This document shows positions 29,389-63,528 of a DNA stretch of 64,000 nt, piece after piece. The stretch lies in the IMG/VR virus record IMGVR_UViG_3300042563_002756. The stretch is one strand, 5' to 3'. The notes beneath the pieces are model-generated. The model worked only from the letters and a program-made list of their open reading frames with translations, did no database searches and was not told where the DNA came from. The number at the start of each line of letters is the position of its first letter. Position 1 is the first letter of the stretch. This DNA comes from a virus. The position numbers and the translations under genes are program-made.

Positions 29389-29398
29389 TGGATGACTT
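29389..29398 (-). promoter_or_regulatory. TATAATATAC promoter-like motif upstream of folE
   Basis: member of the recurrent TATAATATA(T)AC family. Confidence 0.4.
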
Positions 29399-29416
29399 GT
29401 ATATTATAATACATTA

Positions 29417-30250
29417 TTATTTAGGTTCAGTCAAGCGTAGTATTAGATTTTTCTTAACTGCGGAGTCCAAAACATTCATTTGCACACCTTGTTGTTCTGC
29501 GTATTTTAATAGAGCAGAAGTATCTTTTGGAAAGCACATACCACCAAATCCGAACTCGCCGTCGGGTCCTGGCACTTTCATATGACTATTGCCAATACGA
29601 CTATCCATTGTAATCATACTGGCAATCTTATTATAATCTTGCCCTGTTTTAGTAGCAAGGGCATATAACTCATTCATAAACGTAACCTTAGTCGATAGGA
29701 ATGAATTGATAGCATATTTGCTCAGTGCGGCTTCTTGGATAGTGCAATGCTGTACCTGTTCTAATGCAGTTTGCCCAAGCCGAATAATGCGTTCTGCATC
29801 ACGCTGATATGCACCTACGCTACCGCCGATAATGGCAAACTTGCCATTTATATAATCTCTCTCAGCATTGGCAGCAGTTAGAAACTCCGGAGCATGAACT
29901 AGATTAGGGTACTGATCATTTAGAGTTTGGTACACACTAGGTGGTGCAGTACACTTACTGATAATAACGCCTTTGTAATCTTTAAGTTTTTCTAAGACGT
30001 ACTCTAATATACTGGCATCGCATTTGCCATCGTCTCCCATTGGAGTAGGTACGCAGACAAACACGCCTTCGCAGTCGGCGAGATCTTTAAATGTGTGTGA
30101 ACCTTTTGTTGTATCTTTATCAACTAGTATAAGGTCAGTTGAGATTTCCATTGATCTAGCAATGGCACTGCCTACAAATCCTAGGCCCACAATGCCTATT
30201 TTTGGGTTATTTGAAAAAGGGAAATTCATAATATATGTATTTAATGTCAT
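29417..30250 (-). CDS. UDP-glucose/GDP-mannose dehydrogenase-family protein, short form (277 aa) lacking the C-terminal UDP-binding domain
   Basis: N-terminal Rossmann IGIVGLGFVGSA; catalytic GFGGMCFPKD Cys motif; ends ~50 aa after it. Confidence 0.65.
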   Translation of the reverse strand: MTLNTYIMNFPFSNNPKIGIVGLGFVGSAIARSMEISTDLILVDKDTTKGSHTFKDLADCEGVFVCVPTPMGDDGKCDASILEYVLEKLKDYKGVIISKCTAPPSVYQTLNDQYPNLVHAPEFLTAANAERDYINGKFAIIGGSVGAYQRDAERIIRLGQTALEQVQHCTIQEAALSKYAINSFLSTKVTFMNELYALATKTGQDYNKIASMITMDSRIGNSHMKVPGPDGEFGFGGMCFPKDTSALLKYAEQQGVQMNVLDSAVKKNLILRLTEPK

Positions 30251-30474
30251 TCACTGAGCCCCATAAAAATAAGTTCACGCTCTGTAACATTGGCAACAGG
30301 TTTGAGCCAACCGTGACGAATACATTCATTGATAATCATCTTGTATTCTTTTGGACAACTTTGATTGATCTCAAATCCTGCTCGAGGTGCCTGCATCAAT
30401 CCGTCGTAGATTACGAATTTAGGATCGCTCTGTTTGAGAGTGCGTATTTGACTTTTGTATAGAGTGTATGTCAT
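30247..30474 (-). CDS. hypothetical protein (75 aa)
   Basis: ORF. Confidence 0.4.
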   Translation of the reverse strand: MTYTLYKSQIRTLKQSDPKFVIYDGLMQAPRAGFEINQSCPKEYKMIINECIRHGWLKPVANVTERELIFMGLSE

Positions 30475-30505
30475 ACTGCCAGTATAGCAGTATTAACATT
30501 GCATG

Positions 30506-31240
30506 TCAACGGTCTATCCAGTCTTTATTACGGTAAGGTTTACCAATGGCTGCTTGCGGTAGATATCGAACTACTTTCTTTTTTAATCGTTGGATAATGG
30601 GATGGTTGTGATCGTGTTGGAATGCTCTTAAATACATTCTCCAACTGTTGTGACGTCGTCTGATGCCTTTTTGGTTTTCACTTAGGTAGTCGACGATTTG
30701 GTCCACATCACCTTTAAATTTGTCTATTAATTCACAAGCGATATTGAATCCGTATGCATCTATTTCATCGGAACAGCCCAAATAACTCTGCTCCATTTGC
30801 ACTTCTGTTTTGTTTGCAGTGCTGGCATAATCTGGAATAATTTTAAATTTACGCCTACGATACTGCCTCATGTGTATCAATTCGTGTAGTAGGGTGTCTG
30901 CTACTGTATAACACATTCCCTTGTAGCGTTTTTTAGTTATGCATATATGCTCGTCAAACAACGAATAAACAAATATTATCTCTACAGCCTTCTTTTTATC
31001 TTGGTCCCACTCACTATAATATGTTCCGCCCACCCAAACTTGATTGGATTCTACTTTAAAATTAGTACTTCGTTTAAACCTAACTGGCGCTAATTTTTTT
31101 AAATGATTGGTAATTTTGCTGTGGAATTTTTCTATAGTAAGCTGTTGCCCGACTAATTCCGGATAAAGAGAGTACAGGAAACCTGCAATAGTTTCTCGAT
31201 CTAGCATAGACCAATTAAATCGTACTCTTGGTGTAGTCAT
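30506..31240 (-). CDS. HExxH zinc-metallopeptidase-like protein (SprT/ImmA-like fold suspected)
   Basis: LLHELIHM HExxH motif; 244 aa; last gene before AT-rich island. Confidence 0.4.
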   Translation of the reverse strand: MTTPRVRFNWSMLDRETIAGFLYSLYPELVGQQLTIEKFHSKITNHLKKLAPVRFKRSTNFKVESNQVWVGGTYYSEWDQDKKKAVEIIFVYSLFDEHICITKKRYKGMCYTVADTLLHELIHMRQYRRRKFKIIPDYASTANKTEVQMEQSYLGCSDEIDAYGFNIACELIDKFKGDVDQIVDYLSENQKGIRRRHNSWRMYLRAFQHDHNHPIIQRLKKKVVRYLPQAAIGKPYRNKDWIDR

Positions 31241-31398
31241 ATTTCACCTTGTGATATATTTAGTTATCACTATCTGCTTTTCCTCAGTATTGTAGCTTAG
31301 TATTGTTTAGGGATACGGTCTAATAATTATTAACGGCATAAATTTTCCTTAATATATAGTAGCATTAAATACAATGCAGTACATTTATAGAGGACACT

Positions 31399-32310
31399 AT
31401 GCGATTTATTTTTTTTACAATTTTAATTTTTATCACTTCTATAGCTAATTCTACAGAACTAATTTGGATAAACTCACCTTATAGTGCAGGTCACAGCGGG
31501 CACAATTCTTTAGAAAAAGTACTTACAAAAGCTAACTCATCTCAACAAGACTATATTTTTAAAATTCAAATAAAACCTGGCGGCCAGGGAATAGTTGCAT
31601 TAAAAGAAACGGATATAAATCCGTCGTCTGCTCTAGCAATTGTACATGCTGCATTTGTTGACAATGTTGAGAAAAATTTAATTAAAAGAAATGATTATGT
31701 TGCTATCCACGGTATGGGAGATGCATGTTGGGCTGTTGTATCGTCAAACGGAATACAATCTGTTGGTGTTTCGAGTCTGCAACACACGTCCGAAATCGTA
31801 GTCGGAACAGTGGGAATTGGAAATGCTACTCATCTTACAGCATTAGAAATTGGTAGAAAATATAATATTCCAGTTAGATTAGTTCCATTTAAATCAAACT
31901 TCGATGCATTTGTCAATCTTGCAGGAAATAATGGAGTTAATTTTACTATAGAACGACTATCCACAGTTCAAAATTTTAAACAAAAGAATTCGAATATTAA
32001 AATTTTAGGACTTAGTTGTACGACAAGATCTCTCTACGAACCATCTATAAAAACTTTATCTGAACAGGGTATAAATGTTCCGTCAGTGTTTAATGTGATT
32101 GTTTCGAATAGACAAATGAGCGAAGCAAAACGAAAAACTATAGGAAGAATTTTAGACAAATCTACTAAAATAGTAGGCAATGATGAGATAATGAAACTTA
32201 GTGATATGAGAAGTCCAGTGTTTGACTCAATTAATGCTGAAGATTTTTTTAATGATAGGATTAATTCTATTTCAAATATTAGAAAACGCCATTCTCAGGC
32301 AATACAATAA
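31399..32310 (+). CDS. TctC/Bug-family periplasmic solute-binding protein-like, divergent (signal peptide)
   Basis: signal peptide; blocks NSPYSAGHSGHNSL, IKPGGQGIVA, VGTVGIGNATHLTALEI, RLVPFKSNFDAFVNL align to TctC conserved blocks. Confidence 0.55.
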   Translation: MRFIFFTILIFITSIANSTELIWINSPYSAGHSGHNSLEKVLTKANSSQQDYIFKIQIKPGGQGIVALKETDINPSSALAIVHAAFVDNVEKNLIKRNDYVAIHGMGDACWAVVSSNGIQSVGVSSLQHTSEIVVGTVGIGNATHLTALEIGRKYNIPVRLVPFKSNFDAFVNLAGNNGVNFTIERLSTVQNFKQKNSNIKILGLSCTTRSLYEPSIKTLSEQGINVPSVFNVIVSNRQMSEAKRKTIGRILDKSTKIVGNDEIMKLSDMRSPVFDSINAEDFFNDRINSISNIRKRHSQAIQ

Positions 32311-32317
32311 CCCTCTT

Positions 32318-32692
32318 TTAAAGTATGTCTGATATGTTCCAATTACCTTCGGGCAGAATAATTTCTTGTACAGTTCCGTCTTCGCTTGATATTTCAATAA
32401 TTTTTGCACCTGCGGTAATGCCTACTAAAGCATTATACTCGTCTCGTATGATCCAAAATGGATCCATTTCCGTATCGTGATCGTATTTGTGAAATTCCTC
32501 TAAATTTTCCCATTCGGCATAATAATTTAAAGTCAATTGGTCTTCACTCACATTATGCTCCCATTTAGTGATCTTTTCTTCTCCAATGTAATAATGCCAA
32601 CGAGTTAACCACTCATCGTCTGGCTGCATTACTTCATAATGCCAGAAAATTTCTGGCATTGGCCTATTAAATACTCTTTTAAAAATTATCAT
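32318..32692 (-). CDS. hypothetical protein (124 aa)
   Basis: ORF. Confidence 0.4.
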   Translation of the reverse strand: MIIFKRVFNRPMPEIFWHYEVMQPDDEWLTRWHYYIGEEKITKWEHNVSEDQLTLNYYAEWENLEEFHKYDHDTEMDPFWIIRDEYNALVGITAGAKIIEISSEDGTVQEIILPEGNWNISDIL

Positions 32693-32728
32693 AAATTCTC
32701 CTAGAAACGGTAGTAATCAATTTTATTT

Positions 32729-33709
32729 ATGCTAAATATGAGTGGTATAAAGGAGATTGATATGACCGCCAAACTAGTTAGATGGGTGCTTGCACACGAA
32801 CCTATTGAAATTTTTATTAGAGCTGCTGAAAAATTTGCTGAGATAGTAGAAGAAAGAGCTCCAGGAAGATTAAAAATTGAAGTATTAATGCTTAGTGAAT
32901 ATGCTGAAAAATATCAAAACGGTAAAAAAATAACCAAGCATGACTTACTTGATTTGATGGATAAAGATGAAATTGAAATGAGTCAAATGTATACCTACGT
33001 CTTGAGTAAGTTTAACAAAGACCTAAATGCATTGGACATGCCATTTTTATTCAACGATCACGATCATGCAGCTAGAGTATTTGAAGGACCTATTGGTGAT
33101 CAACTATTAAACGGTTATTCTAAAACTAACAGTAATATCAAAGGTTTGGCATTTACCTATAGTGGAGGATATAAGAATCTCCCGTTTAATAAAAAGATTA
33201 CTTCGTTAAGTGACTTAAAAGGTGCTAAGGTTAGAGTATCTAACAGTCCTGTATGCTTTGATACATTTAAAGCACTAGGGGCAGATCCTATTGTAATGGA
33301 TGTTGAAGAAATTACCCCTGCAATAAAAGATGGTAGAATTGATGCAGGTGAAAGCTCTTGGCCTAGAATTTACGGTTGCGATCAAAACACAGTTGCTAAA
33401 AGTATTTTTAACACAGGTCACAGTCTGTTATTAACTAATATTATTATCAACACTAAATTCTTTAATAGTTTAGATTACGAGATGCAGAATCTATTAAAGG
33501 AAGCAGCAGTAGAAGCTGGCCGATTCGAAAGAAAAATCAGTGTAGATGATGTTAGTCCTACAATTGATAAAGCACGAGCAGACGGAATCGAAGTAGTTGA
33601 TTTATCTCAGAAAGATCTAGAAACGTTTAAAGAGTTATCAAAAGAAATTTATTCAAAGTACGAAAATTTCTTCAGTAAAGGCTTGTTAGACAATATTAAG
33701 AAACACTAA
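32729..33709 (+). CDS. DctP-family TRAP-type solute-binding protein homolog lacking a signal peptide
   Basis: MPFLFNDHDHAARVFEGPIGDQLL, KGLAFTYSGGYKNL, LKGAKVRVSNSPVCFDTFKALGADPIVMDV match DctP blocks; no N-terminal signal sequence. Confidence 0.7.
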   Translation: MLNMSGIKEIDMTAKLVRWVLAHEPIEIFIRAAEKFAEIVEERAPGRLKIEVLMLSEYAEKYQNGKKITKHDLLDLMDKDEIEMSQMYTYVLSKFNKDLNALDMPFLFNDHDHAARVFEGPIGDQLLNGYSKTNSNIKGLAFTYSGGYKNLPFNKKITSLSDLKGAKVRVSNSPVCFDTFKALGADPIVMDVEEITPAIKDGRIDAGESSWPRIYGCDQNTVAKSIFNTGHSLLLTNIIINTKFFNSLDYEMQNLLKEAAVEAGRFERKISVDDVSPTIDKARADGIEVVDLSQKDLETFKELSKEIYSKYENFFSKGLLDNIKKH

Positions 33710-35013
33710 ACCCAATCTATTTTATAGTTCTTCAACCCGGCTTCAAAGTAACATTTGACTTCGGGTTGATCTATTTTTAAAACTCGATAATTTTCGTCCA
33801 GCGCCCATCTAGTATCTAGATCCTTCCAATTTTGTTTGTATACTCGAGCAATAATTACTGGCATAGATGGCATTTTTATTTTATTAAAAAAATAAAAATC
33901 GTTTTTATCAAATTTGTGCAGATAACATTTTGATGCCCACTTGTATGTACTTTGTGTAATGCCTTTAAGTTTTTCCCCGTTATTGTTATTATGCATACTC
34001 CATTGTTGATAATCTAAAGAACCGAACCAGCTTATTATGTCTTCAGTTAATATTGATTTAAAATTATCGTTAAGTCCGTAAACCATTGCAGGACGAACTG
34101 CACCCCAAACAAATCTAGGATTAAACATTGACCACCAGAAGAAATCATGCAAACTGTAAATCGGTACATTGACACTTTTTATATTGTTGTGTATTTTTTC
34201 ATAAAATAAATGTCCAAAATTTGCATCGTGAGAATTTTCAGAACTTATATTTTGTGGAACGTAGGGTATAGTTTTTAAAGAGTTTATGCCTCTCTTTAAT
34301 GCAGTATTAAAATAATATATTAAAATATCTCGATACTCAGAATAGTGCGTGTTTGAATCACTTACCTTGTTGTAAAGATGACTGAGATTTTTTCTACCGG
34401 CAGTCTGCATAGTTTCTTCAAGGTATTTCATTTGAGGATACAGTTTAACCCCCAATTCTGTTCCGTAAATGAAATCACCTAGATCAGCTGATATACAAAA
34501 ATGTTGTTTATTTTTTATAAAATCACTATAAAAATTTTTAGAAGAATCGATAATTTTAAATTTACCTTCGATGTGATTTGTATAGAAATATGGATTTTCT
34601 ATAATAGAATCAGCACTCATTGAAATTATTATTTTTTCTAAATATTCTTGTCCTAGATTTTTTATTAACGAGGCCATTACAACAGTACTGTCTATTCCTC
34701 CAGAATAAAATACAACACAGTTTTTACCTGTTTGATCGATAATATTTTTTATATCCATTGCCCTGCGGTCTGTTACTTCTTCAAATGATAGATTGAACTT
34801 TAAATCAAAAAGTGGAATCTCCCATCCGGACGGTACTACCGTATCCCAAGGATCACTCCATTCTCCGGCTCTTGACAAATATGCAGCGGGTGGATTTGCT
34901 CTTGCAATATTACAATAAAATCTTCCTCCTTCGTCGAGCTCGTCAAAAAATTTAGACAGAGTTGTTGCAACGCTGTAAGAATTAACCGAAGTGCTTTTAT
35001 ATAGTAGTTTCAT
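33706..35013 (-). CDS. PP-loop ATP-pyrophosphatase-family protein, paralog 1 (435 aa)
   Basis: SGGIDS PP-loop (VVFYSGGIDSTVV); paralogous to 35611, 40604, 42724. Confidence 0.65.
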   Translation of the reverse strand: MKLLYKSTSVNSYSVATTLSKFFDELDEGGRFYCNIARANPPAAYLSRAGEWSDPWDTVVPSGWEIPLFDLKFNLSFEEVTDRRAMDIKNIIDQTGKNCVVFYSGGIDSTVVMASLIKNLGQEYLEKIIISMSADSIIENPYFYTNHIEGKFKIIDSSKNFYSDFIKNKQHFCISADLGDFIYGTELGVKLYPQMKYLEETMQTAGRKNLSHLYNKVSDSNTHYSEYRDILIYYFNTALKRGINSLKTIPYVPQNISSENSHDANFGHLFYEKIHNNIKSVNVPIYSLHDFFWWSMFNPRFVWGAVRPAMVYGLNDNFKSILTEDIISWFGSLDYQQWSMHNNNNGEKLKGITQSTYKWASKCYLHKFDKNDFYFFNKIKMPSMPVIIARVYKQNWKDLDTRWALDENYRVLKIDQPEVKCYFEAGLKNYKIDWV

Positions 35014-35599: not shown

Positions 35600-35610
35600 C
35601 GCAATATTTA

Positions 35611-36745: not shown

Positions 36746-36756
36746 ATAAATACCTT

Positions 36757-40595: not shown

Positions 40596-40603
40596 AATCT
40601 TGT

Positions 40604-42700: not shown

Positions 42701-42723
42701 GTATTTTCTTTTTCTACAAATAT

Positions 42724-43641: not shown

Positions 43642-43649
43642 TGAATATT

Positions 43650-45898: not shown

Positions 45899-45928
45899 AA
45901 AGTTATGTAACTTATTATTTTAAGTTAT

Positions 45929-47446: not shown

Positions 47447-47488
47447 TTGTAGGAAGCATAAGTATAGTTATCTACTGAATTTATTCCT

Positions 47489-51357: not shown

Positions 51358-52119
51358 TTAATACCTCATGTATGTTCCACTAACACCTTCCCAGCCATAT
51401 ATTTTCCAGTCAGTTTCTACTATGTCTTTTTCGTAAGGTCTAGTAAAGAAATATAACAAGGTTTCAAGATCATATGCTAGTCCGTTGGGATTATTTGTAA
51501 ATTCTGCAATCACTCTATAGATGTCTAGCATTTTTTCATGATACTCAGAAGTCCATCCATAAAGCACTGAGCAATATTGTCTAAGCGTGTTATCTTGCTG
51601 GGTACTTCGTCTATCTACCATTTCATAGGGCCAAGTATCCTGCCACTCAAATTTTAACGGATGTTTAAAAAACAATTTCCCTGTATTTTCATTTGTACAA
51701 TGAGTTAGGTTAAACGACCGATCAAAGAAATATCTTCCACTTAATTTAAAAAAGAAGTCATATTCTTTGAGCAAATCTTTATATCTATTAAAGAATGCAA
51801 GTTGTAATATTGTTTCACAGTGACTCTTGTGAGAGTGTGTTCTAATAATATCAAATAAGTCGGGAAATTCTTCTGCTACATTAATAAAAACAAGATTTGG
51901 TTGGTAGGCAAGTACTGCTTTGTAGTGTGCAGAATTTTTAGATGAGTCAACTAAAAATATAGTTGTTTCGTCGTCTATTATTCTATCTAAAGATGATAGA
52001 GTAAAAATAGTTTGTCTTAATCGTTCTTCATTACTGAAGATAGATCTTACATTACTGTAGGTAAGTGGATAGGTATTATCAACATCAATGACGCTGGTAA
52101 CCAGTATTGCTTTCTTCAT
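51358..52119 (-). CDS. hypothetical protein (253 aa), possible glycosyltransferase-associated
   Basis: ORF in GT operon. Confidence 0.35.
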   Translation of the reverse strand: MKKAILVTSVIDVDNTYPLTYSNVRSIFSNEERLRQTIFTLSSLDRIIDDETTIFLVDSSKNSAHYKAVLAYQPNLVFINVAEEFPDLFDIIRTHSHKSHCETILQLAFFNRYKDLLKEYDFFFKLSGRYFFDRSFNLTHCTNENTGKLFFKHPLKFEWQDTWPYEMVDRRSTQQDNTLRQYCSVLYGWTSEYHEKMLDIYRVIAEFTNNPNGLAYDLETLLYFFTRPYEKDIVETDWKIYGWEGVSGTYMRY

Positions 52120-53138
52120 GATCTATAAAAGTTGCCTGTTAATAATTTTTTAAAATATTCATCGAGTTGTTTATGTACAACTTCTTCAGAGTAGTGTTTC
52201 ATTGCCCAGTCTCGGCAAACTTTGGGGTCTATCTTGTCAATGTTATTCAATGCGTCGACAAATTCTTTAAACTCTCTACAACGGAATCCAGTTACACCTT
52301 GTACAACTGTTTCTGTAAAGCCCCCCCAGTCTGTGGTAATAGCTGGGGTGCCGGAGAAGTAGCCTTCAGCAACCATATTGCCAAAAGGTTCAACGTAGTA
52401 AGTCGGTCCTATGATCGCCTTTGCATCTCGCATTAATACTTTACGCTGTTCTGCATTTGCCACACCAAACACTTCTACATGACTAGGAATTTCAGAATAA
52501 CCCATGTCTGCTAGATCTCCGGGACCTGCTACAATCAATTTATGTCCTGTTTCTTTTGTAGCTTGTATAGCAATATTAAGACCTTTGTTTTCAATAACTC
52601 TACCAAAGTAAAGAATATAATCTTTCTTTGCCTTAGAGAATTCAAACTCGTCTGGTGAAAATGCATTTGGTATAACAGCGTCATACCAGCTAGGAGCCAT
52701 TAACATCTTTCTCTCACCGTAGAACATGTGCATTTGGGCATAGCTGACAAATACTCTATAAGGTGCGAACACTGCCTTAGTGTCGTAGCCTATGCTAGGT
52801 TCGATGATAATAAGATCGTTATTGGCTTCGGCGGCAACTTGATTTTCCCAACCATGAAAGCAAACTATAATATCTCCGGGAGATTTTCGGGATTTAATTT
52901 CACCGGCTGCTCTTATATTGTATTTGTCTATACAAGAATTTCTGTGTGGGTATATCTCATCTAAACAAATTACAGTTTCACAATCTACTTTACAGCCCAC
53001 TATACCGTAATGGATACAGTCCCATCCTAGAGGCATCATGTTGTTGATAAATTTTATTACCGCTATAGAAAAGGGATCGGTCCTGTTATTAATATGAACA
53101 GGACCGGTTGGATTGCTTAATATATGAATTGTAGGCAT
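52116..53138 (-). CDS. GT-B (GT4-like) glycosyltransferase
   Basis: EPFGNMVAE ... GTP motif region typical of GT4 retaining transferases. Confidence 0.7.
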   Translation of the reverse strand: MPTIHILSNPTGPVHINNRTDPFSIAVIKFINNMMPLGWDCIHYGIVGCKVDCETVICLDEIYPHRNSCIDKYNIRAAGEIKSRKSPGDIIVCFHGWENQVAAEANNDLIIIEPSIGYDTKAVFAPYRVFVSYAQMHMFYGERKMLMAPSWYDAVIPNAFSPDEFEFSKAKKDYILYFGRVIENKGLNIAIQATKETGHKLIVAGPGDLADMGYSEIPSHVEVFGVANAEQRKVLMRDAKAIIGPTYYVEPFGNMVAEGYFSGTPAITTDWGGFTETVVQGVTGFRCREFKEFVDALNNIDKIDPKVCRDWAMKHYSEEVVHKQLDEYFKKLLTGNFYRS

Positions 53139-53876: not shown

Positions 53877-54674
53877 TTACTTAGGCATCATCAATGCATT
53901 GAAGTTGCTTGGAACAACAATGGTCTGTACTTGTCCATTCTTGATACCTTCTGAGATATTCAACATGGCTTGTGCCTGCATGAATGCAATACTAGCACCT
54001 GAGTTATTTGCAAGTGCTGCCATACGACGGCTTTCAGCTTCGGCAGTCTTAACTTCAACTTCCTTCTGCTTGAGTTCGTTCTTACTACGAACCAATGCGT
54101 TAGCCGACTCAACAACAGTATCACTTGGCAGTACATTACGAATCATAACCTGACTGATCATAATGGAACCGTCCAACTTTTCTTCAGAAAGGTTGCGAAC
54201 AATTTCTTCCTTAATGTAGTTTTCCATGTCAGTGCGGTTGTCTGCCATATCCAATGCTTCGTACTTTCGTGCGGCTTTGTAGATAGCATTACGAGCATTC
54301 TGAACCACATAGTTGTACATCACATAAGTGTCACCTTTGAATTCAGCGTGGAACGATTTGTTCTTGGTTGAATAAAGTTCGGCAACATTCTGTGAATTGA
54401 TGTTGTAAACAACTACAGCATCAAAGTCTTTCATGGTTGAGTTGTCCTTGGCCACCGGAGTCATATTCTCCAAGACCACGTTAACATCCTTGACCGGGAA
54501 TGTAAGCACATCACCGATGAATGTCTGATTGAACGAACCAGGCAACAACTCACCTGGTTGTACCTGTTTATCAAAACCAACTCGCACACCGACCTCACCA
54601 GTCTCAATACGAGTACAAGCACTAGTTAGAGCAACTGCGGTCAAAACCAAACCAACTTTAATAAAACGCATCAT
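53877..54674 (-). CDS. SPFH/band-7 (HflC/prohibitin-like) lipoprotein
   Basis: signal peptide + lipobox-like LTSAC; PHB-domain length and coiled-coil C-terminus (AEAESRRMAALANN). Confidence 0.65.
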   Translation of the reverse strand: MMRFIKVGLVLTAVALTSACTRIETGEVGVRVGFDKQVQPGELLPGSFNQTFIGDVLTFPVKDVNVVLENMTPVAKDNSTMKDFDAVVVYNINSQNVAELYSTKNKSFHAEFKGDTYVMYNYVVQNARNAIYKAARKYEALDMADNRTDMENYIKEEIVRNLSEEKLDGSIMISQVMIRNVLPSDTVVESANALVRSKNELKQKEVEVKTAEAESRRMAALANNSGASIAFMQAQAMLNISEGIKNGQVQTIVVPSNFNALMMPK

Positions 54675-58218: not shown

Positions 58219-58230
58219 GTATATATTATA
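58219..58230 (-). promoter_or_regulatory. TATAATATATAC promoter-like motif upstream of rIIA
   Basis: extended sigma70 -10-like element ~38 nt upstream of ATG, AAAGG RBS. Confidence 0.45.
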
Positions 58231-58270
58231 CAAGAAAAAACCAACCCTGTCAAGAGTTGGTTTGTCCAAA

Positions 58271-58474
58271 TTATCTACCCACTGCAATCAATCGAATTCG
58301 TAATGCGTTCAAACTTGACTGGATAGTCATAAGTTCTGCCAACGCTTTAGTGTAGTGACCATTGGGATGTTTATCATGTCCCAATTTACGATCCACACCC
58401 AGAGCCATTTTAACACTGGCAATGGCTGTGTCAACTGCTTCAATTCGTGCTTCGAGTTTTTCTAAGTCTGTCAT
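58271..58474 (-). CDS. hypothetical protein (67 aa)
   Basis: ORF. Confidence 0.4.
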   Translation of the reverse strand: MTDLEKLEARIEAVDTAIASVKMALGVDRKLGHDKHPNGHYTKALAELMTIQSSLNALRIRLIAVGR

Positions 58475-58668
58475 GTTGTTTCCTTTTCAATACACTGTTC
58501 CACATCCTGCAAGATACGCCGGAGTTCGGCAATATTGACTTCCAACATATGAGCCATAGTCTCTCGGATCGACTTGGTCAGGATGCTGGGATTCCGGTAG
58601 GTCTCCAACAGCATTTCCTTGCCGGCGATTGTGTTACGCAGATTACTTGCTACGGTTTGGATGTTCAT
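58471..58668 (-). CDS. hypothetical protein (65 aa)
   Basis: ORF, ATGA-coupled. Confidence 0.4.
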   Translation of the reverse strand: MNIQTVASNLRNTIAGKEMLLETYRNPSILTKSIRETMAHMLEVNIAELRRILQDVEQCIEKETT

Positions 58669-58883
58669 TCTTCAACTCCGAAATGTTCTAATTTTTCATT
58701 TAAGAGATTCCAACTGACACTATCAACTACGAACATATCACGGCAATCCTTAATACATTTCCGCACAATCAACTCGGCGAACTTTTCCATTACTATCTCG
58801 CCGTACATTTTGCCCTTTCGGTCAAATATCTCATCGGCAGCAGCCTCAGCCTGAATTTGAAGTTCTTTAATTCGTTCATTCAT
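58665..58883 (-). CDS. small protein, KFAELIVRKC ... HFGV family paralog
   Basis: MNERIKELQIQAEAA ... EKFAELIVRKC ... EHFGVEE. Confidence 0.5.
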   Translation of the reverse strand: MNERIKELQIQAEAAADEIFDRKGKMYGEIVMEKFAELIVRKCIKDCRDMFVVDSVSWNLLNEKLEHFGVEE

Positions 58884-59113
58884 TTTCCAACTCCGAAATG
58901 TTCTAAAATCTGTTCTCGGGCGGCGCCTAGCACAGCACTATCTCCACCATCAACATCTTCCAAGTTAGTATTGCTGGCAATGGCAGCACATTTTTTCACA
59001 ATCAACTCGGCGAACTTTTTACGGAAAATAAATTCCCATTCATCTAAGTCAGTCGTTTCCCGACTAGCATATTGACTAGCCTGGTCTTCAAGTTCTTTAA
59101 TTTGTTCGTTCAT
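58880..59113 (-). CDS. small protein, KFAELIVKKC ... HFGV family paralog
   Basis: MNEQIKELEDQASQ ... KKFAELIVKKC ... EHFGVGK; tandem with previous. Confidence 0.5.
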   Translation of the reverse strand: MNEQIKELEDQASQYASRETTDLDEWEFIFRKKFAELIVKKCAAIASNTNLEDVDGGDSAVLGAAREQILEHFGVGK

Positions 59114-59319
59114 TTCTTTTTTCCAATCTTGGTTACAACATCAGCCTTGCTCTGTAGCAGTTGGGCACGGAAGCGACGATATACTCGCAATGAGGCAATG
59201 CTCATAGGATCTTCCTTGCCTTCCAACTCTGCTATCTTAGCATCCAGTTCGGCTTCATGGGCACGATGACGTTCGACATCTGCCTTGAGCCCTTTAGTCT
59301 CGCCCCAAAAGAATTTCAT
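59110..59319 (-). CDS. hypothetical protein (69 aa)
   Basis: ORF. Confidence 0.4.
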   Translation of the reverse strand: MKFFWGETKGLKADVERHRAHEAELDAKIAELEGKEDPMSIASLRVYRRFRAQLLQSKADVVTKIGKKK

Positions 59320-59320: not shown

Positions 59321-59614
59321 TCATCCCCACTTTAACATAAAGAACATAGCGTCCTTTTCGTTTTTGAATCTATACTCAAAAGGTCCAGGACTCCAACGAG
59401 GATTGTTATATCCGTCATTTCTGTGTCCAAACTGCTTCGAGCACCACTCTGTCATAGCATCCTTTTCTTCCCACCAATCACCGCCTGAATAATACACAGT
59501 GTATTTCTGGGGAGCAAGTTCTTCACGCACTCGCATTTCGAGAGTCCGAGGTCGTTTAGTAAACCAGTTCATAGGAGTATGCGGATAAAAACTATTAACG
59601 TCTAAATCAATCAT
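59321..59614 (-). CDS. hypothetical protein (97 aa)
   Basis: ORF. Confidence 0.4.
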   Translation of the reverse strand: MIDLDVNSFYPHTPMNWFTKRPRTLEMRVREELAPQKYTVYYSGGDWWEEKDAMTEWCSKQFGHRNDGYNNPRWSPGPFEYRFKNEKDAMFFMLKWG

Positions 59615-60147
59615 ACACCTACGAACCGGCTGGCTTCGGCGTGCAACCCTGCGTCACCCTTGGTCATCACAGCCAACAACAATCTCTTTTCCTCCAAGTA
59701 GGTCTTGGCGAAAGCAGGATCGTGAGCCATGATGCTACGGCTGTTAGAGATCAAATCTGCCAACTTGATGGTTTGTGCTTCAGCGGGAGCTTCGGCAGTG
59801 TGAGCACGGTCTATTGCCTTGCGGTGGGCACGATTGCCATCATGTGGTTGACTAACATCAGTCAACCATCCAACCAAGGTAGCAATGTCGATGCCAAAAG
59901 CCATATGGATGTCAGTAAAAGTACAACCAGTGTCTTCCACAACATCATGCAACCAAGCAGCCGCCACCATGTCCGGAGTTGAACCTGGAACGCCTGCTAC
60001 GATCTTGGCAACTTCAGCCGGGTGGACAATGTAGGGTTCGTTAGTGTACTTACGCCTCTGTCCAACTGCGGCGTGAGCAGCCATGGCATAGACTTGCGCC
60101 TTACGGACTACATCAAATCCGCTGAGATCCATTGTAAAATCTTCCAT
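59611..60147 (-). CDS. HD-domain phosphohydrolase, (p)ppGpp hydrolase (Mesh1/SpoT-HD)-like
   Basis: H ... HD metal-binding pattern (HPAEVA ... WLHDVVEDT). Confidence 0.7.
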   Translation of the reverse strand: MEDFTMDLSGFDVVRKAQVYAMAAHAAVGQRRKYTNEPYIVHPAEVAKIVAGVPGSTPDMVAAAWLHDVVEDTGCTFTDIHMAFGIDIATLVGWLTDVSQPHDGNRAHRKAIDRAHTAEAPAEAQTIKLADLISNSRSIMAHDPAFAKTYLEEKRLLLAVMTKGDAGLHAEASRFVGV

Positions 60148-60167
60148 GCTGCTCTCCTTGTTAATAA

Positions 60168-60179
60168 GTATATATTATA
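60168..60179 (-). promoter_or_regulatory. TATAATATATAC motif plus conserved RBS cassette upstream of HD gene
   Basis: ATAATATATACTTATTAACAAGGAGAGCAGCATGGAAG nearly identical to the cassette upstream of 60218..60826. Confidence 0.45.
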
Positions 60180-60217
60180 GCATGGATTTACCATGCTGTC
60201 AACCGGGATTTGACATC

Positions 60218-60826
60218 TTATTTAAATTTTGGACCCACTGCCCAGAATACAATTGATTTACGAACCCCACTGGTCAATGGTGTTACTCGATGATGAATGT
60301 ATGACGGGAATGATATAATTCTTCCTTTTTCTTGCGGAATAATTATTGGAGCATCGACATTGTCAGTAATTATTTCAAAGTCACCTCCTGTATAATCTGT
60401 ATTATCCGATAGTACTAAACTAAATGATAGTTTTCTTGGATTCCGCAACTCAACGGCTGAACTTAAACCAAATGCCATATCTGTATGATATGCATAATGT
60501 GATCCAATTTGGTTGTATACAGTATACTGAAATCGATCAAATCCAATTAAATCAAATTGAAAATTCTTATCATTTATAATATTTGCAACATATTCTAAAA
60601 TATCAAAAATCCACCCATTAGCATCGTTGATAAAATGAAATTTTGTTTCTGATATTCTAATATCTTTATTTTGATCTCGATTACCTATTGTAGCAGGATT
60701 TGTGCCTTGTTGGCTACAATATTTTTCAATGGCATCTAATATACTTAGATCAATCAAATTATCAGAAATTACATAAGGATATGTAATGTGATTTCTAATA
60801 ACTGGCATTTCAATTAGTGCTTCCAT
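60218..60826 (-). CDS. Fe(II)/2-oxoglutarate-dependent oxygenase (prolyl 4-hydroxylase-like)
   Basis: HTD (HxD), distal HHR, RKS 2OG-binding motif. Confidence 0.7.
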   Translation of the reverse strand: MEALIEMPVIRNHITYPYVISDNLIDLSILDAIEKYCSQQGTNPATIGNRDQNKDIRISETKFHFINDANGWIFDILEYVANIINDKNFQFDLIGFDRFQYTVYNQIGSHYAYHTDMAFGLSSAVELRNPRKLSFSLVLSDNTDYTGGDFEIITDNVDAPIIIPQEKGRIISFPSYIHHRVTPLTSGVRKSIVFWAVGPKFK

Positions 60827-60848
60827 GCTACTCTCCTTGCTAATAAGT

Positions 60849-60858
60849 GTATATTATA
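60849..60858 (-). promoter_or_regulatory. TATAATATAC motif plus conserved RBS cassette upstream of 2OG oxygenase gene
   Basis: ATAATATACACTTATTAGCAAGGAGAGTAGCATGGAAG. Confidence 0.45.
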
Positions 60859-60993
60859 ACATTGAAAGCAGGGCGTGTCAACCAGAATAGCAAACTAGAT
60901 TCTTATGAGCTTGTGTGCATCTAGCGCAAAAGAATCGCTGTAAAACGTTCTTCGGTGCTGATTTGTGTACTAAAGTTTATCTAAACTGTAAAC

Positions 60994-61224
60994 TCAAGTA
61001 CTAGTTTTGACTACTTCTAAAACGGTAATTTCCACAACCAAATGCTTACGCAGTAGCATGAACTTTTTGAACTTGGCTTCTATGTCCGCCCGAATGTACT
61101 CGTCATGATAAGGCATAGTAGCAACGTCCTCATAGGGTTCATCGTTTTCGTTTAACGCTATGAAACTGAGCTTTACTGTGCCCTGTTCGGGATCTTTGAA
61201 CATTTTAACAAATTTGTTGAACAT
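60994..61224 (-). CDS. hypothetical protein (76 aa)
   Basis: ORF. Confidence 0.4.
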   Translation of the reverse strand: MFNKFVKMFKDPEQGTVKLSFIALNENDEPYEDVATMPYHDEYIRADIEAKFKKFMLLRKHLVVEITVLEVVKTST

Positions 61225-61232
61225 GCAAATAT

Positions 61233-61778
61233 TTAGTGATGCCCTTTAATTTCGTTATCTTTAATCATACGAACTGCCCGATCCATGGTGATTACAATTT
61301 CCCCAGTTGAGTCCATACCCACATCCATGCAACGATATTTTTCCATCCCTGTAGTGCCACCGTGCAAGTGACCGTGAAAGTGCAGAGCACCACGATGCAT
61401 CTGATCCCATTCATAGATAGGATAGTGAAACATCACGCACTTGTGTCCGTCATAGGTAACATCCAAATACTTATGTACTTCAACAAATGCATCGCGGAAT
61501 GTTACATCCATTAGGGTCTTGCGGTCATGGTTGCCTTCTACAAGGATCTTATCTCCGTTCAACCGATTCATCATTCGTCCAGCATCACTTCCTGACATAA
61601 ACGCTACATCGCCTAAGATGTAGACTAAATCACCTGGCTCCACTTTGGCATTCCATTCTTCTACCATTGCGCTATTCATATAGCCGACATCGTCACGGAA
61701 TCGTGCTCGTGTTTGTGGACAGAACTTCATGATGTTCTTGTGCCCGAAATGGAGATCCGAAGTAATCCAAGTTTTCAT
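61233..61778 (-). CDS. calcineurin-like metallophosphoesterase
   Basis: DLHFGH, GDVAF, GNHD, GHLHG phosphoesterase motifs. Confidence 0.85.
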   Translation of the reverse strand: MKTWITSDLHFGHKNIMKFCPQTRARFRDDVGYMNSAMVEEWNAKVEPGDLVYILGDVAFMSGSDAGRMMNRLNGDKILVEGNHDRKTLMDVTFRDAFVEVHKYLDVTYDGHKCVMFHYPIYEWDQMHRGALHFHGHLHGGTTGMEKYRCMDVGMDSTGEIVITMDRAVRMIKDNEIKGHH

Positions 61779-61813
61779 ATTATTTCCTATTATACAGCCA
61801 GTGACCTATACCG

Positions 61814-62278
61814 TCAACTGGCATACCAAATTTCTTTAAACCCTTCTTCCTCAGTGGGCTCTTCCCAACTGGCAATCATGCTGGCAATAACATGATCCGG
61901 AATCTCTTTGCCAGGGCGGCTCATCAATCGGCGCATAAGTTCTTTGTGTTCAGGTGTCTTAAACACTATTGCAATATGCTCATAGTCAGGTAACATGTTA
62001 AACTTGCGAGTACGACTTGCAAGAGTAGTACTAGTTTGATCCCAGATAATATCTCGATTCATTTCACGAGCCGCAACAACTTCCTTGGCCATAAGGTCTA
62101 CAGCAGTGGGCATAAAGTCTACAAACACTTCGCTGTAGGTGCGTCCTACTTCCTTTGCGTAGATTTCAACCCACTTGTCTGTGCTAATACAAGAGCAGGT
62201 TAACGCCCAGTCTTGTTCAGCCACCCAAGTACTTTTACCTGAACCAGGCACTCCAATCAATTGATAACATTTTGCCAT
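61814..62278 (-). CDS. polynucleotide 5'-kinase domain protein (T4 Pnk kinase-like P-loop NTPase)
   Basis: LIGVPGSGKSTW matches T4 Pnk TIGCPGSGKSTW; later blocks DQTSTTLASR and RPGKEIPDHVIASM parallel Pnk. Confidence 0.7.
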   Translation of the reverse strand: MAKCYQLIGVPGSGKSTWVAEQDWALTCSCISTDKWVEIYAKEVGRTYSEVFVDFMPTAVDLMAKEVVAAREMNRDIIWDQTSTTLASRTRKFNMLPDYEHIAIVFKTPEHKELMRRLMSRPGKEIPDHVIASMIASWEEPTEEEGFKEIWYAS

Positions 62279-62746
62279 TTAATCTACACTCCTAAAAGTT
62301 CGCCAATCATCTACATTTGGCTTTTCATCTTCATCATAAGTCCAACCCAGAGACTTCATCATGCGATGTTTGACCAACAGGTTAGGACTACGGAATCGAC
62401 CAGTGTCATCGAAGCCCATCATGACTCCAACTTCGCACACTGCGCCACTACGGCAAATGCCTGCAAAGCAGTGAACAACTACATTCATACGGTTGGCTAG
62501 TGCATGTTGTAGCAGTCGAACAAGCTCGTTAGCCTGCTCTTGACTACACCGCATGGCTTCTTCAAGAACAACATCATTCTTTTCCACATCTAGAAATTCA
62601 AAATTATGAATCTCTTTGAACTTGTGTGCGGGCACAGGGCGCCAGCTGGCCGGATCAACAATGCTGATCAGCATACTGTTCTCACCTGCCTCATGATGAA
62701 ACCTAGTTGGTATATCAGCGGCTGCTACATTTTCAATCCATGGCAT
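62279..62746 (-). CDS. Cys-based (CX5R) protein phosphatase, dual-specificity/PTP-like
   Basis: VHCFAGICRSG CX5R(S) P-loop. Confidence 0.75.
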   Translation of the reverse strand: MPWIENVAAADIPTRFHHEAGENSMLISIVDPASWRPVPAHKFKEIHNFEFLDVEKNDVVLEEAMRCSQEQANELVRLLQHALANRMNVVVHCFAGICRSGAVCEVGVMMGFDDTGRFRSPNLLVKHRMMKSLGWTYDEDEKPNVDDWRTFRSVD

Positions 62747-62817
62747 GTGGTTCTCCTTTTAAACTCTTTCTAATTATAGCATAACTTTACCACTTAGTCA
62801 AGCTAGTAAATAATAGT

Positions 62818-63042
62818 ATGGTCAATCCCAAAACTCGAATCCAAGAAAAGTTAGACGATTTAAACGAACTACTGAACCACTATACGTATCCTACAAAAGG
62901 AGAAACACTGGCGGCACAAAAGGGTCTAATGTTAGGTTGGTTGGCTAGATTAGCTTCAACTGACTATATTGTTGCTCAGGAACTAGAGGCCCGGTTGCAT
63001 TTGGCTAAGCAGAAGAATTTATCCTCAAAAGGTACATCGTAA
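62818..63042 (+). CDS. hypothetical protein (74 aa)
   Basis: ORF, one of few plus-strand genes. Confidence 0.4.
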   Translation: MVNPKTRIQEKLDDLNELLNHYTYPTKGETLAAQKGLMLGWLARLASTDYIVAQELEARLHLAKQKNLSSKGTS

Positions 63043-63262
63043 CTTCAGGCCCGTCAACTTTGACAAGATCTCCAGGATACTTGTTACTACCAGTATACCA
63101 TTTACTTGCACCTCGTCCTGCTTCGATAACCGTAATCAGTTTAGGATTAAGTTTCTTTACAGTGCCTAGTTCTAGACTATTGTGGCTAGGATAGCAGACA
63201 GCATCGCCCACTGCCAACATTCGTCCTAGTTTGTCTCGGTGTTCTGGTTGTGCCTTTGCCAC
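63005..63262 (-). CDS. hypothetical protein (85 aa)
   Basis: ORF. Confidence 0.4.
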   Translation of the reverse strand: MAKAQPEHRDKLGRMLAVGDAVCYPSHNSLELGTVKKLNPKLITVIEAGRGASKWYTGSNKYPGDLVKVDGPEVTMYLLRINSSA

Positions 63263-63263
63263 G

Positions 63264-63491
63264 TTAAACTCTTTCTCTCTTCATGCCGCCAATACGGCTC
63301 GCTTTGTTCCAATCGTAGGCAACACCATCTGGGCACAGCCCATCCTTCACGCTATCTACACCGAACATACCTACGATTTCAAAATCTGGTCCTGTGATAG
63401 ACACAAACTCGTTCATCTCTTTGGCAGTGTGCATTGCTTCTTCTAATGAAGCAACTTCGGAAATTATATCTTTACCTTTTACTTTATACAT
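63264..63491 (-). CDS. hypothetical protein (75 aa), possibly leaderless
   Basis: TATAATATATAG directly abuts ATG (TSS predicted at A of ATG). Confidence 0.4.
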   Translation of the reverse strand: MYKVKGKDIISEVASLEEAMHTAKEMNEFVSITGPDFEIVGMFGVDSVKDGLCPDGVAYDWNKASRIGGMKRERV

Positions 63492-63528
63492 CTATATATT
63501 ATACTTTCTTTTCAACATTTAGTCAAGA

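Follow-up and report, generated by a model that had tools for sequence, protein, structure and literature searches.

The 64-kb stretch of DNA analysed here, referred to as the window, belongs to an uncultured jumbo phage of a large environmental clade, which sequence comparisons place at a distance from PA5oct, Atu_ph07 and RaK2-type phages. The best match of rIIA, in PA5oct-type jumbo phages, has about 28% identity, the DnaE fragment is common to Atu_ph07, PA5oct and RaK2-type jumbo phages, and a megablast search against a phage collection gave no match. The window contains 13 consensus sigma70-type promoters, each directly upstream of a co-oriented gene. These gene-proximal sites agree with the bacterial housekeeping consensus at 10 to 12 of 12 positions, and their spacer is 17 nt long except for one of 18 nt. 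Of the 15 best matches to TTGACA-N16-18-TATAAT, fourteen belong to the coding strand; intergenic DNA, which makes up 4.7% of the window, contains 9 of these 14 (binomial probability about 2e-9, a hand estimate with 4.7% as the per-site chance), in agreement with a preliminary description of this DNA that had suggested a sigma70-type promoter class. The genes behind the promoters include rIIA, folE, an HD hydrolase, a phosphoesterase and DnaE fragments, which are typical early genes, and the timing of their transcription is predicted to be early. The 25 nt before the -35 are only slightly richer in AT (63%) than the sequence overall (60%). The window shows no evident MotA-box middle class and no evident late class with exact TATAAATA. 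Exact TATAAATA is not enriched there (3 found, 8 expected), and 6 of 9 matches to the relaxed form ATAAATA lie in intergenic DNA on the minus strand, so that the contrast drawn earlier with TATAAATA late elements fails for the exact motif and holds only for the relaxed one, outside the segment which that description covered.

Six promoters, all on the minus strand, are clearly leadered, with a Shine-Dalgarno sequence (SD) and a start codon at the 3' end. The promoter TTGACT-N17-TATAAT at 62773..62801 is followed by a 26-nt gap with an AAGGAG SD and the ATG at 62746, and promoters are found at the orthologous site in many relatives. The rIIA promoter TTGACA-N17-TATAAT (58225..58253), conserved in the related loci L001, L015 and L047, has a 38-nt leader between the end of the -10 hexamer and the ATG at 58186, and an 11-bp hairpin with a U run behind it has this -35 in its loop (z -2.0). 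The folE promoter TTGACT-N17-TATTAT (29406..29434) is separated by 38 nt from the ATG at 29367, with a GGAG SD, and the promoter TTGACT-N17-TATAAT(ATA) at 22427..22455 has a spacer hairpin and a 31-nt gap, with an AAGGAG SD, before the ATG at 22395. The remaining two are copies of one cassette: copy 1, TTGACA-N17-TATAAT-ATACACTTATTAGCAAGGAGAGTAGC-ATGGAAG (60820..60881), precedes a 2OG-Fe(II) oxygenase gene (60218..60826), and copy 2 (60141..60202) precedes an HD-domain hydrolase gene (59611..60147), with 26 nt between the -10 and the ATG in both (ATGs at 60826 and 60147). Copy 2 has a GCATGG-TAAAT-CCATGC hairpin between its -35 and -10 (z -3.24), and the HD cassette is conserved in L001, L004-L007, L012, L013 and L016. 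The minus-strand promoter TTGACG-N17-TATAAT at 61789..61817, with its -35 in a hairpin loop (z -2.56), precedes the phosphoesterase gene (61233..61778, start at 61778). The ATG follows the -10 at a distance of 10 nt and an AGGA lies within the discriminator, which leaves a predicted leader of just 2-4 nt; this layout is kept in L003, L006, L012, L013 and L060.

The other promoters, about half of the total (6 of 13) and also on the minus strand, directly abut an ATG, at 63491, 30474, 25445, 15480, 6075 and 4837, that opens a predicted leaderless gene 6 nt after the -10, or 5 nt in gene F. Promoter P-A, TTGACT-N17-TATAAT (63498..63526), lies just downstream of a GCCCUAC-UUCG-GUAGGGC hairpin that follows a tRNA-Gly gene (z -3.55), and its gene A (63264..63491; 75 aa, MYKVK...), which belongs to no Pfam or PHROG family, would be the first cistron, without an SD. 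Gene B (30247..30474; 75 aa) lies behind TTGACA-N17-TATACT (30481..30509), and the next gene, which is UDP-glucose dehydrogenase-like, is translationally coupled to it. Among the relatives, L161 and L163 have a promoter at offset 6 and L171 has one at offset 5; the others have no abutting promoter, and L124 has an SD. Gene C (25206..25445; 79 aa) has the promoter TTGACT-N17-TATAAT (25452..25480), whose -35 overlaps the stop codon of a MazG-like gene. Gene F (15313..15480; 55 aa), an AbrB/MazE-like gene of phrog_661, has the promoter TTGACT-N17-TAAAAT (15486..15514), which is identical in L283, L284 having an SD instead. The promoter of gene D, TTGACA-N18-TATAAT (6082..6111), is as a whole a 16-bp palindrome (z -4.31) and is kept in relatives down to 36% identity; gene D itself (5557..6075; 172 aa) encodes an N-terminal fragment of a DnaE-like polymerase (phrog_11127). 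Gene E (4589..4837; 82 aa) has the promoter TTGACG-N17-TATACT (4844..4872), the -35 of which is in the loop of a hairpin resembling a terminator, GGGTC..GGCCC with T7 behind it (z -1.98), and this hairpin-promoter-ATG layout is also present in L264, L234, L237 and L238. Altogether, hairpins are present at 8 of the 13 promoters (z between -1.7 and -4.3) and are absent at the 2OG cassette copy (z +1.9) and four other promoters.

The preliminary description had started from a recurrent promoter-like 9-mer, TATAATATA. This 9-mer has eight exact matches in the 64-kb window (13277, 22424, 29400, 45281, 58222, 60171, 60850 and 63495), all on the minus strand, which is the coding strand, and none on the wrong strand, against a shuffle expectation of 1.84 +/- 1.33, and eight or more matches were reached in none of 100 shuffles. 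Its recurrence is therefore confirmed, with one match in coding DNA. Five matches (22424, 58222, 60171, 60850 and 63495) are TATAAT plus ATA of complete TTGAC(A/T)-N17-TATAAT promoters, and so TATAATATA(T)AC is the -10 and discriminator of only some members of the class. The matches at 13277, where a -35 is absent, and at 45281, which lies inside a coding region and also has no -35, were rejected as promoters. At folE, the 9-mer occupies 29400-29408 rather than 29389 as had been given, is 20 nt from the -35 and is 3 nt out of register; the in-register -10 is the overlapping TATTAT (29411-29406), as the orthologues in L168 and L169, with TTGACT-N17-TATAAT, show. Also missing from the list of sites were 22424 and eight more members of the class, in which ATA does not follow the -10. 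The spacing of 30-40 nt assigned to the motif before gene starts holds approximately when it is counted from where the motif begins. The abutment at 63491 is as described, TATAAT-atatag-ATG with the A of the ATG as the 7th base after the -10. Comparative data strongly support the proposal that 63264..63491 is leaderless, and this gene is one of six, not the single case it had been taken for. The earlier interpretation is thus supported, but it was too narrow with respect to the 9-mer, the six-gene layout and recombination.

Conservation around the -10 points to where transcription would start. Among 479 promoters of the clade, 328 have a pyrimidine at position 6 after the -10, 288 have A at position 7 and 266 have T at position 8, and this conserved pyrimidine-A-T makes the A at position 7 the predicted +1. 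The related loci, 2.06 Mb with 470 strong promoters, have ATG at offset 6 in 58 cases and at offset 5 in 25, over a background of about 9 per offset, although the raw height of this peak is inflated because some of these genes had themselves served to fetch the loci. The control triplets ATC, GTG and CTG have no comparable peak at offset 6; a peak is seen for ATA and ATT, both of which share the initiating A-T. At least 27 unrelated protein families in the clade open at a promoter-abutting ATG, a count that corrects only roughly for the fetch bias; they include Rossmann-fold dehydrogenase, ClpP-like, dCMP-deaminase-like and 5'-3' exonuclease-like families with recognisable N-termini. In the window itself, an ATG that opens an ORF lies at offset 6 behind 4 of the 14 top promoters on the minus strand, and a looser promoter threshold adds two abutting ATGs at offsets 6 and 5. 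An SD is absent at all six abutting starts, most other genes of the window carrying AAGGA(G). Abutting promoters occur without an SD in 32 cases and with one in none; part of this mutual exclusion is a matter of geometry, since an abutting -10 takes the place of the SD. Gene A was found in 48 distinct metagenomic upstream contexts, 22 of which have an abutting promoter, with an offset of 6 in 22 of 22 in a scan that allowed offsets of 4-8. These 22 promoters have unrelated spacers and discriminators, and an SD stands before this ATG in other contexts. No contig in the metagenome scan begins at the predicted +1. In a control of 100 kb of RB49 with 40 strong promoters, ATGs lie at 26-44 nt, and none of three coincidences at offset 6 is an annotated gene start; at the gene D orthologue of the cultured relatives Atu_ph07, Phosso, SCTP-2 and PA5oct the layout is absent. 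Genes C and F have little comparative support. Taken together, these comparisons strongly support leaderless expression of gene A, and the zero-leader layout itself is found at six genes of the window.

The two cassette copies (60141-60186 and 60820-60865) share 46 nt with 89% identity at a spacing of 679 bp, in agreement with the earlier claim that two consecutive genes have a cassette in common, and the proteins behind them are unrelated (HD_4 and 2OG-FeII_Oxy_3). From TATAAT to ATGGAAG, 36 of 39 positions are identical, and GGTTGACA is also common to both copies. The 2OG gene and its upstream promoter region form a variable module (60207..61002, minus strand) that is absent from the closest relatives: the alignments of L001, L002 and L003 jump from window position 61003 to 60206, and no 2OG orthologue is present in any of 80 loci. 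In L031, the 2OG-type upstream half (120 nt) is joined to the HD gene through the shared core, a chimeric cassette of the kind that recombination would produce, and the two alignment blocks overlap by 42 bp. Gene C together with its promoter is an inserted module, since in L081, L083, L090 and L099 the MazG-like gene directly abuts a 228-aa gene. Other shared cassettes stand before non-homologous genes in L067, in tandem, and in L001 compared with L013. The cassette is best read as a putative recombination module of the promoter-early stem-loop (PeSL) type, a reading absent from the preliminary description.

Several other explanations have to be weighed against these readings. The likeness of the cassette copies could reflect convergent selection for an optimal promoter, leader and initiation region, with the presence or absence of the 2OG gene unrelated to cassettes. 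The core is indeed built of near-consensus elements (TATAAT, AAGGAG and ATG) and is confined, within the data, to the HD and 2OG genes, but convergence accounts poorly for the identity through non-consensus leader positions, the L031 junction located precisely in the shared core, the copy spacing equal to one repeat period and the other cassette pairs before non-homologous genes, and is decidedly improbable. It is extremely unlikely that the abutting ATGs are ORF-extension artefacts and that downstream in-frame starts are used, although the abutting ORFs are short, four have no family assignment, and a TTG of gene F, in frame at 15420, stands behind an AAGGA SD with a spacing of 7 nt. Internal starts are at odds with the PHROG profiles, which align from residue 3 in genes D and F (residues 3-172 of D to profile positions 9-171 of 171; residues 3-52 of F to positions 4-52 of 61), and with the conservation of the MYKV start of gene A, even its first 15 nt, across orthologues at 48-73% identity. 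They also conflict with the canonical AAGGA SD before the same ATG in relatives without an abutting promoter and with the clade enzymes whose known N-terminal motifs open at the abutting ATG. All six abutting starts are ATG, and comparison with relatives establishes them as the correct start codons.

If the start codons are correct and the promoters real, the abutment could still be a by-product of genome compaction, with transcription starting a few bases inside or beyond the ATG and the genes translated from read-through transcripts only; the small genes would then be translated by SD-independent or coupled initiation on transcripts made upstream. The tight packing of phage genomes, with 4.7% intergenic DNA here, the overlap of several promoters with the stop codon of the preceding gene, and the AGGA at gene 61778, which could serve read-through transcripts, are in line with this possibility. 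Compaction, however, predicts a spread of offsets rather than the constant offset of gene A and the sharp peak at 5-6 across the clade, and does not explain why the ATG falls on the conserved A-T position of the leadered promoters. Moreover, hairpins or terminators directly upstream of or within several promoters would cut read-through, and gene A often follows a tRNA gene instead of a coding gene. This explanation is unlikely. Still less probable, indeed very improbable, is the idea that the TTGACA-N17-TATAAT elements serve a phage-encoded factor or polymerase, or form a non-transcriptional repeat, instead of being host sigma70 promoters. Some jumbo phages do encode their own RNA polymerases, and the perfect 16-bp palindrome at 6076-6111 could be a protein-binding site. 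Against this stand hexamers and spacing that match the bacterial housekeeping consensus, strand-specific and gene-proximal sites, SDs and start codons at normal distances, and the lack of any Rfam family match, as well as the Y(-1) R(+1) context, which is the start-site selection rule of E. coli.

The layout has both parallels in and differences from known systems. Early promoters of T4 depend on the host sigma70 and have near-consensus hexamers with conserved flanking bases; the promoters described here are likewise located before rIIA-type and nucleotide-metabolism genes, but their -35 is the canonical TTGACA. Lambdoid morons are single genes with their own promoter inserted between genes that are adjacent in relatives, as is gene C with its promoter, although gene C has no dedicated terminator after it, lies in a lytic jumbo phage and has a promoter that abuts its start codon. 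Leaderless mRNAs include lambda cI from PRM and are common in Actinobacteria; studies cited on them in the literature are Shell et al. 2015 and Brock et al. 2008. The genes predicted here from the sequence resemble them in having the -10 6-7 nt before the AUG, no SD and a first-cistron position, but differ in being tied to full-consensus -35/-10 promoters of a lytic phage, in their number (six genes within 64 kb, and no fewer than 27 families across the clade) and in their interconversion with SD-led versions of the same gene. A dRNA-seq analysis of phiKZ found no leaderless phage transcripts. PeSL cassettes have been described in the T4-type phages RB49, phi1, PST and nt-1 (Arbiol et al. 2010, PMC2839356; Comeau et al. 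2014, PMC4122927). The cassettes of the window share with them a strong sigma70-like promoter, combined at 8 of 13 promoters with a stem-loop that lies over the boxes or between them, an SD followed by a start codon at the 3' end in the leadered forms, repetition before unrelated small genes, and breakpoints of indels between close relatives inside the cassette, as seen for 2OG/HD, L031, gene C and L067. They differ in that the phage is not T4-type (Straboviridae), a clear AT-rich tract upstream of the -35 is absent, some copies have no hairpin, and almost half of the cassettes lack a leader and an SD. Such a zero-leader arrangement does not belong to the published description of PeSL cassettes, in which an SD and a start codon form the 3' end.

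These observations lead to a joint explanation that we consider probable, in which host-RNA-polymerase consensus promoters, in leadered and zero-leader forms, are exchanged by recombination as hairpin-bearing modules. The housekeeping RNA polymerase of the host would transcribe the early genes from near-consensus TTGACA-N17-TATAAT promoters with an A-rich discriminator, presumably as the sigma70 holoenzyme. The leadered form would give transcripts with a 26-38 nt leader and an AAGGAG SD, whereas in the zero-leader form the ATG of the first gene would lie on the initiating A-T, 6 nt or rarely 5 nt after the -10. Since the ATG sits on the initiating A-T, the transcript should begin with 5'-AUG and be translated without an SD, and the downstream cistrons would rely on normal SDs or translational coupling. 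Hairpins at the promoters would terminate or attenuate upstream transcription, and because upstream transcription would be stopped in this way at many promoters, each promoter and its gene may act as a self-contained module. Recombination between similar cassettes would then insert, delete or swap genes, as in PeSL cassettes, and the 2OG/HD pair is probably an example of such recombination caught in the act of gaining or losing a gene.

The 9-mer TATAATATA occurs eight times in the 64-kb window, each time on the minus strand, which holds 85 of the 99 likely genes. The expected number is 1.84 ± 1.33, and none of 100 dinucleotide-preserving shuffles reaches eight, in agreement with the preliminary description of a recurrent motif. 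The copies at 22424, 58222, 60171, 60850 and 63495 make up the TATAAT and the following ATA of complete TTGAC(A/T)-N17-TATAAT promoters. A real promoter is also present at the folE site at 29400, yet the 9-mer there is 20 nt from the -35. Since orthologues in the related loci L168 and L169 carry TTGACT-N17-TATAAT at the position aligned with the folE promoter, the functional folE -10 is the overlapping TATTAT, and the motif as originally read is 3 nt out of register; the coordinate first assigned to it, 29389, misses by about 8 nt, and the rest of the coordinates are right. The copy at 13277 has no -35, nor has that at 45281, which lies within a gene. The proposal that the motif is a promoter element holds for the five sites in register; at folE the motif lies within a promoter but out of register, and these last two copies are not promoters. 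TATAATATA(T)AC is one spelling of the promoter discriminator, and the real unit is the whole promoter, not the 9-mer.

Scanned strictly (11 or more of 12 hexamer matches, spacer of 16-18), the window has 15 sites, 14 of them on the minus strand, and the built-in scanner is concordant. Nine of these 14 fall in the 4.7% of the window that is intergenic on a longest-ORF gene map, and a tenth, at 6082, is scored as coding solely through over-extension of an ORF into the promoter; this supports the sigma70-type promoter class suggested earlier. Three 10-of-12 sites directly before gene starts bring the gene-proximal promoters to 13. These precede the genes for rIIA (with rIIB downstream), GTP cyclohydrolase I (folE), an HD hydrolase, a 2OG-Fe(II) oxygenase, a phosphoesterase and a DnaE-like fragment as well as several small ORFs, which are of kinds typical of phage early regions, and sigma70 early promoters are themselves ordinary phage biology. 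Among 479 promoters of the window and its relatives, the consensus goes on beyond the -10, with A at position 1 in 319, a pyrimidine at position 6 in 328, A at position 7 in 288 and T at position 8 in 266. Transcription in E. coli starts in a pyrimidine(-1)/purine(+1) context. Bases 6 and 7 fit such a context, and so initiation would be expected 7 nt past the -10, by a rule taken from E. coli.

Six minus-strand genes start immediately behind such a promoter. The gap between the -10 and the ATG is 6 nt in genes A (63264..63491), B (30247..30474), C (25206..25445), D (5557..6075) and E (4589..4837), and 5 nt in gene F (15313..15480). Gene A had been put forward as a single leaderless candidate; its abutment is indeed seen, and it is not single, since five further genes share the geometry. 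All six starts lack a Shine-Dalgarno (SD) sequence; elsewhere in the phage most genes carry AAGGA(G) at 5-8 nt. Each of the six comes first behind its own promoter, and the cistrons after it are SD-led or overlapping. Longest-ORF calling over-extends ORF D to a TTG inside the -35. PHROG profiles match from residue 3 of both D (phrog_11127, positions 9-171 of 171) and F (phrog_661), indicating that these starts are not ORF-extension artefacts.

The phosphoesterase gene (start 61778; window 61779-61817) is a seventh one close behind its promoter, with its ATG only 10 nt after the -10 and AGGA inside the discriminator. Transcripts from its promoter are predicted to have a leader of 2-4 nt, and read-through transcripts a normal SD; this start could be dual-mode. 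The same N10 layout is present in L003, L006, L012 and L013, and in L060 without AGGA. The gene D promoter (6076-6111, minus) is a 16-bp perfect palindrome (-17.8 kcal/mol, z -4.3), its -35 region pairing with the -10 and discriminator, and yields a mirror-image promoter-like match on the plus strand as well; an operator or a bidirectional role is possible. Gene D encodes the N-terminal fragment (phrog_11127) of a DnaE-like polymerase apparently split into several small consecutive ORFs (5277-6745). The DnaE fragment is common to the jumbo phages Atu_ph07, Phosso, PA5oct, RaK2 and GAP32, and Atu_ph07, Phosso and PA5oct have comparable fragments under separate annotations.

Megablast of the 58-64 kb region against deposited phages gives no match, and rIIA is about 28% identical to that of PA5oct-type phages. 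IMG/VR contains hundreds of related contigs of up to 425 kb. Gene A orthologues with 48-73% identity keep the MYKV start; in some of them an unrelated TTGACA-N17-TATAAT promoter stands exactly 6 nt ahead of that ATG, and in others, which have no promoter, it is preceded by an AAGGA SD. A search of a metagenome collection for transcript-like contigs beginning at the predicted +1 found none; its loci, reused as an independent sample, provide 48 distinct gene A upstream contexts, with an abutting promoter in 22 and an SD in 11, and all 22 promoters lie at exactly 6 nt when offsets of 4-8 are allowed. The mutual exclusivity of abutting promoter and SD is discounted, being partly forced by geometry. 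In loci L007-L080 the first five codons of gene A, ATGTATAARGTAATA (63477-63491), keep their nucleotide sequence, synonymous positions included. This conservation extends to both leaderless and SD-led versions at a protein identity of only 48-73%, which suggests selection on the mRNA 5' end. A tRNA-Gly(GCC) gene (63556-63629) lies directly upstream of the gene A promoter. Since the promoter follows a tRNA gene within a few bases in many relatives (L009, L010, L017, L028, L039, L065, L069-L079, L291, L313, L321 and L327), gene A marks the downstream edge of a tRNA cluster.

The abutting layout of gene D is kept down to 36% protein identity. In distant loci (L245, L251, L253, L254, L257, L262, L267, L268, L271, L273, L275 and L276), the -35 (cTTGACa) falls in the codons for LDxLINx, the conserved peptide at the C-terminus of the upstream gene product. 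The TAA stop of that gene lies inside the -10, and D mostly starts as ATG-CTT-ATG 5-6 nt further on, so that coding and promoter signals overlap in a conserved manner. Genes E and B behave in the relatives as A and D do. For C and F there is little comparative information; in relatives the genes on either side of C adjoin each other, C and its promoter being absent. The distant cultured relatives Atu_ph07, Phosso, SCTP-2 and PA5oct have no abutting promoter at the D orthologue.

In 2.06 Mb of related DNA with 470 strong promoters, ATG occurs 58 times at offset 6 and 25 times at offset 5 over a background of about 9 per offset. The controls ATC, GTG and CTG form no peak of this kind at offset 6; ATA (95) and ATT (33), which share the initiating A-T with ATG, do. 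Because the loci were fetched partly with some of these same genes, families were counted instead of raw ATGs, and at least 27 unrelated protein clusters, including some enzymes with recognisable N-termini, have their start codons 5-7 nt behind a consensus -10. As a control, 100 kb of RB49 contain 40 strong promoters with ATGs at 26-44 nt, and none of three N6 coincidences is an annotated start. That the abutment is a by-product of genome compaction is the strongest of the alternatives and still an unlikely one, since the fixed distance of 6 nt contradicts it. That the elements are something other than sigma70 promoters is very improbable given their full consensus and context, and the idea that the abutting ATGs are wrongly called start codons is scarcely credible in view of the profile coordinates, the N-terminal conservation and the SD-led orthologues that use the same ATG.

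A further alternative concerns the cassette shared by the adjacent HD hydrolase (59611..60147) and 2OG oxygenase (60218..60826) genes. As described earlier, the two genes are preceded by a duplicated promoter-SD cassette: a 46-nt stretch at 60141-60186 recurs with 89% identity at 60820-60865, 679 bp away. Their products are unrelated. From TATAAT to ATGGAAG, 36 of 39 positions are identical, and GGTTGACA is common to both copies. The closest loci, L001-L003 (91-97% DNA identity), lack window 60207-61002, which comprises the 2OG gene and its upstream region, and in most other relatives the preceding gene runs straight to the HD cassette. L031 is a recombinant allele in which 120 nt of 2OG-type upstream sequence are joined to the HD gene via the shared core, with alignment blocks overlapping by 42 bp; this chimera would be the product expected of homologous recombination between two cassette copies. 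Convergent origin of the two cassettes is improbable, as it is contradicted by the chimera and by identity at non-consensus positions. No 2OG orthologue was found in any of the fetched loci, two matches being rejected as 30% paralogues, and a search for further copies of the core found it only before HD and, in the window, 2OG. Near-identical cassettes stand before non-homologous genes elsewhere in the clade, as a tandem pair in L067 and in L001 versus L013. Four consecutive small ORFs of 65-77 aa at 58471-59319 form a tandem paralogue array with internal repeats of 28-38 nt (215-233 bp spacing, 84-93% identity).

Hairpins occur at eight of the 13 promoters, in the spacer, around the -35 in the loop or just upstream, some followed by a U run; an Rfam scan found only the tRNA. 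The promoter-early stem-loop (PeSL) cassettes of T4-type phages, for which RB49 is the reference, consist of a strong sigma70-like promoter with a stem-loop, often between or over the boxes, and an SD and start codon 3' of it, and recombination between copies shuffles ORFans (PMC2839356; PMC4122927). The window cassettes resemble them in their strong promoter, in the unrelated genes behind and in recombination between copies, and eight of the 13 also carry a hairpin. They differ in three respects: the phage does not belong to the T4 type, an AT-rich tract upstream is lacking, and nearly half of the window cassettes have no leader. PeSL-type cassettes as such are nothing unusual in phages; with the 2OG/HD pair, PeSL-like modular shuffling reaches beyond the T4-type group.

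Elsewhere in the window, exact TATAAATA was rejected as a late-promoter class, being depleted (3 found versus 8 expected). ATAAATA/TATAAAT occurs in intergenic DNA of the minus strand at 7043, 10055, 11682, 13219 and 17789, several copies lying about 25-33 nt before large-gene starts, and six of nine minus-strand matches to ATAAATA are intergenic. The large genes behind it, including those of 988, 515 and 360 aa, have no sigma70 promoter and mostly no SD; a relaxed T4-type late promoter class is plausible. The region 31300-50000 is a low-GC block (28-36% versus about 40-46% elsewhere) with genes on both strands and almost no SD sequences. Its products include a TctC-like protein, a DctP/TRAP solute-binding protein (E 7.6e-56), an AMP-binding enzyme and two B12/radical-SAM proteins. 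Just outside it are genes for a GT1 glycosyltransferase (52116..53138) and an SPFH protein (53877..54674). A metabolic island gained by horizontal transfer seems a better description of the block than a fibre module. Comparison of the DctP-like gene with bacterial genomes was uninformative as to host or donor, the only match being 25% identical, in Ammoniphilus.

A plausible mechanism is that host sigma70 holoenzyme would initiate at the conserved A, 7 nt after the -10. Leadered promoters would then yield a leader of 26-38 nt with AAGGAG for normal initiation, and at zero-leader promoters the mRNA 5' end would be the AUG itself, so that the first cistron would be translated without an SD, probably early in infection. 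The hairpins may insulate each unit from transcription upstream. Each would then be a module complete in itself, open to insertion, deletion or exchange by recombination. Sequence and comparison show the geometry, how it is conserved, the start codons and the recombinant alleles; which polymerase is used, where exactly transcription starts, leaderless translation and early timing are inferred.

Both the promoter class and the cassette belong to known kinds. What is less ordinary is how precise and widespread the promoter-ATG fusion is, always at 5-6 nt, in six genes of these 64 kb and in at least 27 families across hundreds of environmental contigs. In the literature searched, SD-independent initiation is documented mainly for single repressor genes and actinobacterial systems, and leaderless phage transcripts are explicitly reported absent in phiKZ. 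The same search, incomplete and no proof of novelty, brought up no description of a sigma70-dependent lytic phage in which leaderless early genes are widespread; a systematic fixed-distance promoter-AUG fusion across a clade appears to be a variant not known before. The chances are about even that this uncultured jumbo-phage clade, from freshwater and other environments, uses zero-UTR promoter-AUG cassettes, fused at 6 nt to a consensus sigma70 promoter and exchanged with SD-led versions, as a systematic early-expression device in compact mobile modules. If so, either the host initiates efficiently at a 5' AUG or the phage reprograms ribosomes towards leaderless initiation. If the transcripts are leaderless, gene callers would need adjusting, as ORF D illustrates, and the cassettes would offer natural promoter-ORF parts of very small size. 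Many of the genes that a lytic phage lineage expresses first, a large share of them, would then depend on SD-independent initiation, which would bear on how phages take over translation.
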